Sequence record: NC_019503.1
DNA: 64,000 nt
DNA from: Escherichia phage ime09
Reading direction: 5' to 3' (one strand)
Made by a program: the position numbers and the translations under genes. The stretch's first letter is position 1; the number at the start of each line of letters is the position of its first letter. The notes beneath the pieces were generated by a model, which was not told the DNA's origin, ran no database searches, and saw nothing but the letters and a program-made list of their open reading frames with translations. Shown in pieces: positions 27,634 to 37,875 of the stretch.

Positions 27634-27893
27634 ATACTGGCTTCTTTGAGCTTCGTTTTAGCAATAGTTAACTGATCGATGCTTTCAGCATAATTCTTCG
27701 CGAATTCATAGTCTTCGCAATTATTTAGCACTTCCCAGAATTCGTCATATAAAGCATCAAAAATAAGTCCTAAACGAACTTCAGCATCTTTGATAGCATT
27801 CACTTTACCGATTTTCTCTTCAGTATGTGGCTTATAACCCTTAATATCTTCAATCATATTTGACTTCCTCACCAGTACATAAATCATATTCAA
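27591..27893 (-). CDS. Hypothetical protein at the vs.4 position; candidate Acb2-like anti-CBASS sponge by synteny only
   Basis: ~100 aa ORF two genes past regB; start may be internal (MIEDIKGYK). Confidence 0.45.
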
Positions 27894-28071
27894 CTAAACG
27901 AATAGGTTCATGAATGCCATATCCTTGAACAGAAATTTCTGTCGTAGGATAAATTCCATCAATATCACCCATGGTCCACGCTTCATTAAATTGCTGTTCG
28001 CCTGAATTACTAAACCATTCTGCGAAAGCATTTAACACATCTTTAGAACCTTCAATAATTATCTTTGCCAT
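27850..28071 (-). CDS. Hypothetical small protein
   Basis: ORF track 73 aa. Confidence 0.45.
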   Translation of the reverse strand: MAKIIIEGSKDVLNAFAEWFSNSGEQQFNEAWTMGDIDGIYPTTEISVQGYGIHEPIRLVEYDLCTGEEVKYD

Positions 28072-28433
28072 TACAAGCTCTCAGTAAAGGTACGAGCGAT
28101 AACGTCGCGCTGCTGTTCCGGAGTCAGAGAGTTAAAGCGAACTGCATAACCGGATACACGGATGGTCAGCTGCGGATATTTTTCCGGATGCTTAACTGCA
28201 TCTTCCAGAGTTTCACGACGCAGAACGTTAACGTTCAGGTGTTGACCACCTTCAATTTTAACCGCAGGTTGTGGTTCAATTTCAATTTCACGGGTATGCA
28301 AACCGTAGAAAATTTCTGGGTCTACAAAAGAGTCCTCTTTAAAAGTTTTAGAGACAATAATTCGTGCTTGAATACCATCTTCAAAATAAATAGTACCTTT
28401 ATGTGTGCCTTCAAGAATTTGATATGCTTTCAT
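28071..28433 (-). CDS. Autonomous glycyl-radical cofactor (GrcA/YfiD-like), host-like C-terminal half
   Basis: 120 aa; C-terminal ~60 aa carry the RVSGYAVRF glycyl-radical motif and appear identical to recalled E. coli GrcA; 3' half of gene is visibly GC-richer than surrounding phage DNA. Confidence 0.85.
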
Positions 28434-28440
28434 ATAAACC

Positions 28441-28821
28441 TCAATTAGAAAATAAATTTATCCAAGATTGCTCTTTAATTAAAAATGGCTCAGAATCATA
28501 TGCCATTAAACTTTGGGTGATTAGTCCTTTAAAAGGTCCATCAATAAATTCCATGGTAAAATATGGAATTTTATTCATTAATCTTGCATTAGGAGCAGTA
28601 CACAAAACTCTGCATCCTTTGAATACACCTTTTTGTAATTTATATTGCTTAGGATAAAATTCGCTCAAGACGTTATTATTTGCCAAAATTTCAAAATGAT
28701 TCACCAATTTATTTTTAATAGTTTTTGGCGAAAAATAAAGATATTCGAAAAGCTGTGTGTCTGTCATCATTGCATTCCGATTACGAAAAACTGCGGACGA
28801 GTAATACCACCAATGCAACAT
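28441..28821 (-). CDS. Hypothetical protein; probable start at MMTDTQ (28770), coupled to upstream gene
   Basis: ORF track 126 aa; internal ATG overlaps upstream stop in ATGA. Confidence 0.45.
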
Positions 28822-37043: not shown

Positions 37044-37119
37044 TGGTCGAGGCAGTAGGGATCGAACCTACGACCTAGGACTTAGAAGGTCCTTGCTCTT
37101 CCTTCTGAGCTATGCCTCG
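37044..37119 (-). tRNA. tRNA-Arg (anticodon TCT)
   Basis: Hand-folded cloverleaf on minus strand; anticodon loop CTTCTAA; CCA encoded. Confidence 0.85.
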
Positions 37120-37123
37120 TATT

Positions 37124-37198
37124 TGGCGGACGTGATAGGATTCGAACCTATAACCAATCGCTTAACAGGCGATCGCTCTGCCATTGAGCTACACATCC
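37124..37198 (-). tRNA. tRNA-Asn (anticodon GTT)
   Basis: Hand-folded cloverleaf; anticodon stem ATCGC/GCGAT, loop CTGTTAA; T-loop TTCGAAT; CCA encoded. Confidence 0.8.
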
Positions 37199-37202
37199 AA
37201 AT

Positions 37203-37289
37203 TGGTGGGGAGTGATGGAGTCGAACCACCCGAGTCGCAATGACAATGGATTTACAGTCCACACCGCTACCTCTACGGGATAACTCCCC
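37203..37289 (-). tRNA. tRNA-Tyr (anticodon GTA), long variable arm
   Basis: Hand-folded; acceptor GGGGAGT/ACTCCCC, anticodon loop CTGTAAA, long extra arm; CCA encoded. Confidence 0.8.
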
Positions 37290-37302
37290 TTAATTCTTAA
37301 TT

Positions 37303-37377
37303 TGGTGGCCCTGGGTGGAATTGAACCACCATCTGGCGATTATGAGTCGCTTGCTTGAACCTTCCAGCTACAGGGCC
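37303..37377 (-). tRNA. tRNA with CAT anticodon (Met, or Ile if lysidine-modified as for T4 tRNA-Ile)
   Basis: Hand-folded; acceptor GGCCCTG/CAGGGCC, anticodon loop CTCATAA, T-loop TTCAATT. Confidence 0.75.
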
Positions 37378-37378
37378 T

Positions 37379-37454
37379 TGGTGCTGATTGACGGAATCGA
37401 ACCGCCGACCTTCTCATTACAAGTGAGTTGCTCTACCTACTGAGCTAAATCAGC
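37379..37454 (-). tRNA. tRNA-Thr (anticodon TGT)
   Basis: Hand-folded; acceptor GCTGATT/AATCAGC, anticodon loop CTTGTAA, T-loop TTCGATT. Confidence 0.85.
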
Positions 37455-37459
37455 AAAAC

Positions 37460-37549
37460 TGGCGGAGGCGATAGGATTTGAACCTATGAGTCGCCGGAGC
37501 GACTGCCGGTTTTCAAGACCGGTGCATTAAACCACTCTGCCACGCCTCC
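37460..37549 (-). tRNA. tRNA-Ser (anticodon TGA), long variable arm
   Basis: Hand-folded; acceptor GGAGGCG/CGCCTCC, anticodon loop CTTGAAA, long extra arm. Confidence 0.85.
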
Positions 37550-37551
37550 AG

Positions 37552-37625
37552 TCTCCATACAAGGATTTGAACCTTGGACCTCCTGATCCCAAATCAGGCG
37601 CTCTACCAAACTGAGCTACACGGAG
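37552..37625 (-). tRNA. tRNA-Pro (anticodon TGG), CCA not encoded
   Basis: Hand-folded; anticodon loop TTTGGGA, T-loop TTCAAAT; abuts tRNA-Ser. Confidence 0.85.
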
Positions 37626-37635
37626 TAAATTAAAT

Positions 37636-37709
<74 letters not shown>

Positions 37710-37714
37710 AAATT

Positions 37715-37801
37715 TGGTGCGAGAAGTGGGACTCGAACCCACAAGGAAATCATTCCGCAGCATTTTAAGTGCTGTGCCTTTACCAATTTGGCCATTCTCG
37801 C
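37715..37801 (-). tRNA. tRNA-Leu (anticodon TAA), long variable arm
   Basis: Hand-folded; acceptor GCGAGAA/TTCTCGC, anticodon loop CTTAAAA, T-loop TTCGAGT. Confidence 0.85.
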
Positions 37802-37802
37802 G

Positions 37803-37875
37803 CTGGGAATAAAGGACTCGAACCTTTGCATCCTGGAATCAAAATCCAGTGCCTTACCAACTTGGCTAATTCCCA
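37803..37875 (-). tRNA. tRNA-Gln (anticodon TTG), CCA not fully encoded
   Basis: Hand-folded; acceptor TGGGAAT/ATTCCCA, anticodon loop TTTTGAT, T-loop TTCGAGT. Confidence 0.85.

Follow-up and report, generated by a model that had tools for sequence, protein, structure and literature searches.

The gene vs.6 of Escherichia phage ime09 lies on the minus strand at positions 28071-28433 of a 64-kb stretch of DNA (64,000 nucleotides of sequence record NC_019503.1, referred to below as the window) and encodes a 120-residue, GrcA-like autonomous glycyl-radical cofactor. Comparison with bacterial and phage sequences indicates that the 3' half of this old phage gene is a patch of DNA from the grcA gene of the host, and we consider it probable that the constrained C-terminal domain of vs.6 has been converted recurrently, in each case by the grcA of the matching host.

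When vs.6 was compared by blastn with a set of 5426 complete E. coli genomes, solely gene nucleotides 179-363 gave a match (98.4-98.9% identity), to chromosomal grcA in each genome, and no match was found for the 5' 178 nucleotides. The host-derived conversion tract comprises gene nucleotides 179-353 (28081-28255, minus strand; codons about 60-118), with a minimal informative extent of nucleotides 189-351. All 175 nucleotides agree with the commonest allele of E. coli grcA (100% identity), and identity to grcA is at least 99% in 5156 of the 5426 genomes. The only two differences from the commonest allele are located in the last 10 nucleotides of the gene (28071-28080, minus strand), where the window reads GAG AGC TTG TAA and the host GAA AGC CTG TAA; allele comparison shows this 3' junction zone, which includes the stop codon (G AGC TTG TAA), to be a mixture of phage-ancestral and host bases. 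Host identity begins at TTGAAGGTGG, the codons for EGGQH, and alignment of the flanks places the end of the similarity at the stop codon. On the 5' side the phage-type AAAA is retained at nucleotides 175-178, where the host has CGCG. The 3' segment has a G+C content (GC) of 0.49 and a third-codon-position GC (GC3) of 0.44, compared with 0.33 and 0.18 for the phage-type 5' half (28256-28433, minus strand), and the GC of the tract is within the top 0.8% of all 175-nucleotide segments of the window, the mean GC of which is 0.353. The first-pass annotation, made from the letters of the window, had described a GC-rich 3' half at about 28081-28260 consisting of recently acquired host DNA with E. coli codon usage, and this description proved right, its coordinates to within a few bases; the nucleotide identity is far above that of an anciently diverged homologue (83% in the phages L094-L096), and composition and codon usage are non-uniform along the gene. 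The remainder of the window gave no megablast match to any E. coli chromosome. Within window positions 25001-50000, 258 E. coli plasmid records match one further place besides grcA, at 80-90% identity.

The identity between the tract and E. coli grcA far exceeds what chance or constraint on the protein would give; L094-L096 encode the same 60 C-terminal residues yet differ synonymously from E. coli in 29 codons; the window tract has 0 synonymous differences in 57 codons. The genes pflB and tdcE were ruled out as donors, being only 76-80% identical. Among bacteria, the E. coli grcA tract has an identity of 98% to a cryptic clade of Escherichia, of 92% to Citrobacter and of 84% to Salmonella, and the corresponding values for the 5' part of grcA are 98, 89, and 85%. 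The divergence of the two parts is parallel, therefore the bacterial tract appears to be vertically inherited. The host tract fits both the enterobacterial phylogeny and host codon usage, and Klebsiella phages carry the K. pneumoniae type of tract, as described below. These comparisons indicate that the donor is E. coli itself and that the flow was from host to phage.

The first-pass annotation had further proposed that a host segment was fused to a phage-specific N-terminus, and this part of the proposal is contradicted by several observations. Full-length vs.6 homologues that lack host-identical DNA occur widely among T4-like and T5-like phages, and translations of 80 viral loci revealed full-length homologues in many T4-like, T5-like and jumbo phages. 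In other T4-like phages these homologues have the same C-terminal protein with only about 80-84% nucleotide identity. The N-half is phage-like in composition, as had been claimed, and lacks a match in E. coli DNA, but it is a diverged homologue of the GrcA N-domain and not phage-specific. With N-halves only, hhalign aligned phage and bacterial GrcA with a probability of 92.5% and an E-value of 5e-7 over 47 columns at 30% identity, and some viral homologues bridge the phage and bacterial N-termini (IQI...SIWLIE..KARCLVAK..ED.V...EYREVE). The N-half alone gave no NCBIfam match, the homology being visible only by profile-profile comparison. At its 3' end the gene reads GAG AGT CTA TAA in distant T4-like phages and in Mosigvirus, and differing mixtures of phage and host bases are found in the window (GAG AGC TTG), in T4 (GAA AGT TTG) and in phage OES_C-3 (GAG AGC CTG). 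With phage-type bases at nucleotides 175-178 and in the last 10 nucleotides, both junctions lie inside the gene. Taken together, the alignments indicate that homologous recombination put the host patch in place of part of a phage gene that already existed, and that no fusion took place.

Several of the loci examined have peculiarities of their own. OES_C-3 (L171, positions 401-757) has a 6-nucleotide deletion (EIEIE to EIE) just upstream of the tract and is one base off E. coli over the last 183 nucleotides, the most host-like 3' end seen. In Salmonella phage Lv5cm (L172, positions 238-423 and 401-763) the 5' part of vs.6 is partially duplicated in tandem, and two overlapping coding sequences are both annotated as autonomous glycyl radical cofactor. 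Unrelated groups, the T5-like phages L124-L150 (104-122 kb) and the jumbo phages L107-L109 (346-357 kb), have their own GrcA-like genes of 120-122 residues, some of which reach 151 residues when called from the first in-frame ATG, and their 3' segments are 70-79% identical at most to any grcA in our bacterial panel of 80 loci. At the jumbo-phage loci L109 and L130 the sole open reading frame with a radical motif is NrdD-like.

Within the phage collection the tract is bimodally distributed, with 644 records at 94% identity or above and the next best at 87%. In these 644 records the identity of the 5' half to that of the window is between 88% and 97%, and the 88-90% class consists of phage F2 and six Mosigvirus or unclassified sequences (the classified Mosigvirus APCEc01, SSE1, LF82-3, and p000y, and the unclassified viral contigs L087 and L088). 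In a comparison of 16 Tequatrovirus-type with 7 Mosigvirus-type sequences, the 178 nucleotides of the 5' half showed a mean of 19.1 between-type differences (~11%), with 9 fixed differences and within-type means of 5.0 and 5.7, whereas the 175 nucleotides of the tract showed a mean of 3.5 between-type differences, 0 fixed differences and within-type means of 1.9 and 4.4 (Fisher p = 0.0035 for 9 versus 0 fixed differences). Measured in sliding segments, the identity between the window and Mosigvirus is highest in the tract, at 98-100%, compared with 87-91% in the 5' half and 70-73% in the downstream gene. The 3' segment diverges no more slowly than the 5' half in control lineages that lack host identity, with 5' and 3' identities of 0.94 and 0.87 for L089 compared with L090, and of 0.88 and 0.85 for L094 compared with L097, indicating that the island of identity is not a slow-evolving region. 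The last fixed marker, at nucleotide 170, is 9 nucleotides from the start of the tract at nucleotide 179, and lineage-specific bases are found again from nucleotide 354. An exchange bounded this tightly fits the limits of homology to the host and not those of phage-phage homology, which goes on in the 5' direction. From the comparison of the two types we conclude that E. coli phages underwent conversion by host DNA at least twice independently, in the Tequatrovirus and in the Mosigvirus lineages.

Polymorphism of the host gene is also reflected in the phages. At least four tract alleles occur in E. coli, namely the major allele (A12, T39, C102), the K-12-type C39, A102 (485 genomes), and G12 (carried by O157:H7, among others). 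Of about 20 distinct variants in the phages, three are host alleles, for which a rough estimate of the chance probability is about 0.0003-0.014: C39 is found in phages L085, Lv5cm, SH-1, and Nami, A102 in L086 and PP01, and G12 in L085, ECp13, and SSE1. The tract of SSE1, a Mosigvirus, and the O157-type allele are 100% identical. The shared host alleles suggest further events or continuing exchange. The tract of APCEc01 has five differences from E. coli, none of them a host allele (best E. coli match 97.1%), indicating that tracts also age by mutation. Escherichia phage Nami (L164, positions 221-583) has 9 tract differences from E. coli including N67H and I91S, the latter adjoining the radical motif, and its tract is either a decaying copy or affected by sequencing error.

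Klebsiella and its Jiaodavirus phages represent a second phage-host pair. In JEC and the KPV15-like L110 the 3' segment has a GC of 0.55 and the 5' half a GC of 0.36. A 26-nucleotide pattern from the JEC/L110-type 3' segment was found in 24 metagenome contigs, 23 of them bacterial and one a phage (L187); a 54-nucleotide exact pattern from JEC gave no metagenome match. The bacterial contigs, of 1.3 to 620 kb and with a GC of 56% in L183, the sole bacterial locus measured, encode a GrcA protein that is exactly GRCA_KLEP7 of Klebsiella pneumoniae. In L187, a 166-kb T4-like metagenomic phage, about 155 nucleotides starting at GAAGGCGG match grcA of K. pneumoniae with 100% identity, and L110 and JEC differ from the K. 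pneumoniae tract at 1 and 7 positions, respectively. The 5' junction is positioned at the same codon as in the T4-type phages, and the 3' junction ~15 nucleotides earlier. The Klebsiella conversion brings in the host-type residues LLDAVEH, which replace LEDAVKH, whereas the conversion in E. coli phages is protein-silent. The Klebsiella tract is carried at 90% identity or above by 134 phage records, nearly all named Klebsiella phages, with the next record at 89%. An old event had been suggested for this tract by a best match of 88-89% in the bacterial panel and was rejected, since K. pneumoniae is not among the panel's loci, which explains the value. Overall, the comparison shows at least three independent events, in the Tequatrovirus-type, Mosigvirus-type and Jiaodavirus lineages.

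In the viral contig L110 (167 kb) only an 80-residue C-terminal open reading frame is present, at about positions 1620-1862, and vs.6 may be frameshifted or truncated there, despite a tract that is 99.4% identical to K. pneumoniae grcA. The T4-like phages L094-L100 (142-181 kb) fall into two groups by their C-terminal protein, L094-L098 having the E. coli type (LEDAVKH) and L099-L100 the Klebsiella/Salmonella type (LLDAVEH), with DNA only about 83% identical to any host; these may be old conversions that have since drifted toward phage composition. Among the genome contigs, the loci L025 and L033 comprise a grcA located on a 276-kb "plasmid" of Klebsiella sp. WOUb02 and an enterobacterial grcA in an assembly labelled Vagococcus sp. 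WN89Y, probably as a result of contamination or mislabelling.

A mechanism for the conversion can be proposed from the constraint on the protein. The C-terminal domain would have to fit both PflA and PflB of the host, leaving its protein sequence almost frozen, and purifying selection of this kind would keep the DNA similar enough for recombination. Over a stretch of about 180 nucleotides, the phage gene and host grcA have DNA that is about 80-87% identical, with longest identical runs of 17-32 nucleotides in unconverted or otherwise-converted relatives. During infection, host DNA fragments carrying grcA would pair with this stretch of the replicating phage DNA and take its place through patch recombination, either homologous or homeologous, for which the UvsX/UvsY machinery of T4 is presumably used. 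The ends of the patch coincide with the limits of homology, at the start of the EGGQH codons on the 5' side and a few bases before the stop codon on the 3' side. After a first event, the 175 nucleotides of perfect identity would ease re-conversion, and the tract would now evolve in concert with host grcA. A more tentative proposal is that, across several T-even genera, the 3' half of vs.6 and the grcA of the current host evolve continually in concert; on this we are close to evenly divided and lean slightly against.

A number of points weigh against recurrent conversion, or against its continual form. The case for recombination with host DNA is built from the comparison of sequences, and the base-by-base set was small, covering 27 of about 640 E. 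coli-phage records. The polymorphisms shared with the host are all synonymous third-position changes, which recurrent mutation could yield. The diversity of the tract within groups (1.9-4.4) is not much below that of the 5' half (5.0-5.7), so a few discrete events fit as well as continual conversion. Phage F2 (L168), a classified Tequatrovirus, has a Mosigvirus-type vs.6 5' half and 3' end, indicating that phage-phage exchange occurs at vs.6. The E. coli-infecting Krischvirus (GEC-3S, 75.7%) and T5-like phages are unconverted; their genes are only 70-76% identical, which is consistent with a homology threshold. Finally, the rate of events should be lowered both by the degradation of host DNA by T4 and by the modified cytosine in the phage's own DNA.

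The exchange seen in F2, together with the avidity with which T-even phages recombine, also lends itself to a different explanation, in which a single conversion was followed by spread of the tract through phage-phage recombination in co-infection, the host polymorphisms being coincidental mutations. We judge this to be unlikely, since the exchanged patch must stop within ~9 nucleotides on the 5' side (nucleotides 170/179) and within a few nucleotides on the 3' side, at limits that are those of host homology, and since three host alleles are shared and the Klebsiella system constitutes an independent, host-specific event. A single capture in the common ancestor of Tequatrovirus and Mosigvirus, with a very slowly evolving tract and one further event in Klebsiella phages, would agree with the presence of the tract in every one of about 644 records with a T4-type 5' half and with a within-group tract diversity comparable to that of the 5' half. 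This explanation is quite unlikely in view of the absence of fixed differences from the tract next to 9 in the adjacent 178 nucleotides and a downstream gene that is ~30% diverged. The 3' segment is not slow at synonymous sites in the control lineages, and the E. coli and Salmonella grcA tracts differ by 16%. Each phage group is identical to the host and not merely to the other group, the two groups differ in their 3' junction patterns, and even the small sample shows a between-genera synonymous divergence (dS) of the tract below the genome-wide dS.

Transfer of the tract from phage to E. coli, or in both directions, appears very unlikely. Shared polymorphism is symmetric evidence as to direction, and two-way exchange has been inferred for cyanophage psbA (PMC1484495), but the tract has host composition and none of three E. 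coli alleles examined has a phage-type 3' end. The equal divergence of the E. coli grcA tract and 5' part from Citrobacter and Salmonella is, moreover, unexpected for a recent import. Convergence through selection for host-optimal codons or a messenger RNA feature can be set aside: grcA is highly expressed and codon-biased in E. coli and the GC3 of the tract is host-like, but selection cannot yield 175 of 175 identical bases or reproduce neutral host polymorphisms, the 5' half of the same messenger RNA has a GC3 of 0.18, relatives with an identical protein keep 29 synonymous differences, and Klebsiella phages match Klebsiella codons and not those of E. coli. Host contamination or a chimeric contig is likewise dismissed, since contamination is common in phage sequencing but nothing specific points to it here, and the tract is in frame, flanked by phage genes on both sides, and has the same junctions in more than 640 independent records including the early T4 record X04567, T2, RB51, and PP01.

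The assignment of the gene is clear. The open reading frame at 28071-28433 is 97.8% identical in nucleotide sequence to T4 vs.6 over 363 nucleotides, the proteins differing at two residues, both in the N-half, and the vs.7-vs.6-vs.5 order corresponds to the neighbors annotated in the T2 and PP01 records, so that the gene belongs to the T4 vs.6 (Y06I) orthologue group, in agreement with its initial recognition as the YfiD-like cofactor of T4. Pfam Gly_radical (PF01228) matches residues 61-101 with 66.8 bits (cut-off 22.2). TIGR04365, the NCBIfam GrcA model, matches residues 20-120 with 152.9 bits and does not reach its equivalog cut-off of 170 because the N-half is diverged. The protein has the stand-alone, small form of the GrcA/YfiD family (TIGR04365, IPR011140; ~14 kDa, essentially one glycyl-radical domain). 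Its top solved structure is E. coli YfiD (PDB 6OWR, E-value 8.5e-42), followed by residues 697-759 of pyruvate formate-lyase (PFL; E-value 4.7e-26). In the alignment to 6OWR, residues Glu-61 to Leu-120 are 100% identical to residues 68-127 of E. coli GrcA/YfiD, bearing out the identity of the C-terminal ~60 residues that had been noted from the translation. This segment contains the glycyl-radical motif RVSGYAV (residues 92-98; 28140-28160, minus strand), identified from the translation and by alignment to YfiD and PFL chains, in which Gly-95 (codon 28149-28151) is the counterpart of GrcA Gly-102 and PflB Gly-734.

The function is established for T4 Y06I, which is 98% identical to the window protein, and is carried over to the latter by this likeness. 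The two "spare part" proteins for which there is biochemical validation are T4 Y06I and E. coli YfiD, which restore oxygen-cleaved PFL when they bear a glycyl radical installed by PflA (Wagner et al. 2001, as cited in PMC8683613). The product of vs.6 is likewise a 14-kDa copy of the C-terminal glycyl-radical domain of PFL. On the basis of the literature, the host activase PflA would place the radical on Gly-95, and the activated protein would dock onto PflB that has been cleaved by oxygen at Gly-734, restoring the activity of the enzyme. The rescued PflB would sustain fermentative output of acetyl-CoA and formate in the infected cell under fluctuating oxygen. The conversion leaves this view of the protein's role unaltered, both the gene and its function being already known.

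The window is T4-type phage DNA, with a denV-like gene, vs-region open reading frames and a cluster of 10 transfer RNA (tRNA) genes. The open reading frames adjoining vs.6 are located at 28441-28821 and 27850-28071, and the stop codon of vs.6 overlaps the ATG of vs.5 by one base (TAATG). A GAGG ribosome-binding site, read from the sequence, is positioned 6-9 nucleotides upstream of the vs.6 ATG (28439-28442, minus strand) and overlaps the stop codon of vs.7, and vs.6 is therefore probably co-transcribed with vs.7. A sigma-70-like site is present upstream of vs.7 at 28852-28825 (minus strand), such sites being no commoner here than in shuffled sequence, and a scan for promoters and terminators found none above shuffled-sequence expectation. 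The tRNA cluster (37044-37875, minus strand) comprises genes for Arg, Asn, Tyr, Met, Thr, Ser, Pro, Gly, Leu, and Gln and gives rise to the strongest GC peak of the window; T4 carries 8 tRNA genes, unlike the 10 found here.

Compared with known systems, T4 vs.6/Y06I is an orthologue in the same neighborhood with nothing functional different, and it differs from the window gene at the 3' end as given above. E. coli GrcA/YfiD shares with the window protein the C-terminal 60 residues, the 175 nucleotides of DNA and an identical radical motif, and its N-domain is distantly homologous. The window protein differs from it in an N-half that is ~30% identical and in being 7 residues shorter, and the window gene is part of a phage operon, whereas E. 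coli grcA lies next to ung and eamB. In psbA and psbD, an exchange of segments between T4-like cyanophages and the hosts of these phages is indicated by patchy GC and by statistical tests (Sullivan et al. 2006, PMC1484495). Like vs.6, cyanophage psbA is a host-derived metabolic gene of a T4-like lytic phage, encodes a highly constrained protein and has patchy GC and host-exchanged segments; within one gene, vs.6 similarly shows host-level identity bounded by diverged sequence and a compositional jump. In contrast to psbA, where the signals are statistical and mosaic along the gene, the tract of vs.6 is single, has sharp boundaries, is 100% identical to a host species that is known and cultured, has the same junction in two phage-host pairs, and is protein-silent in the E. 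coli phages. Intragenic recombination between host and phage in cyanophage psbA and psbD was reportedly also described by Zeidner and colleagues in 2005. In T4 marker rescue and plasmid-phage recombination, T4 proteins exchange short homologous stretches with non-phage DNA in the infected cell; vs.6 differs in that the natural host chromosome acts as donor and that wild phage populations carry the product in fixed form. In the literature searched, no description linked vs.6 or grcA of T4-like phages with host identity or recombination, although the T4 genome review (PMC150520) may mention it. Recurrent host-matched conversion of vs.6 is a new example, in enteric T-even phages, of psbA-type exchange.

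T4, the textbook virulent phage, is commonly regarded as cut off genetically from its host, whose DNA it destroys while using modified cytosine in its own. The vs.6 tract provides a clean example from nature of homologous exchange between virulent phages and the host chromosome that has both taken place and become fixed. It also shows a route by which this can occur, in that a host-mimicking domain under extreme constraint at the protein level retains enough DNA similarity for recombination. The locus is experimentally tractable, making gene flow from host to lytic phage measurable, including its dependence on UvsX, EndoII, and EndoIV, and the tract might mark recent host history. If conversion is indeed continual, virulent phages that degrade host DNA and modify their cytosine would routinely recombine with the host wherever constraint preserves homology. 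Older conversions would then fade toward phage composition by amelioration, which would explain the series of 100%, 95%, and about 83% identity, and the vs.6 tract would be a natural recorder of the recent host species, and even of the host allele.

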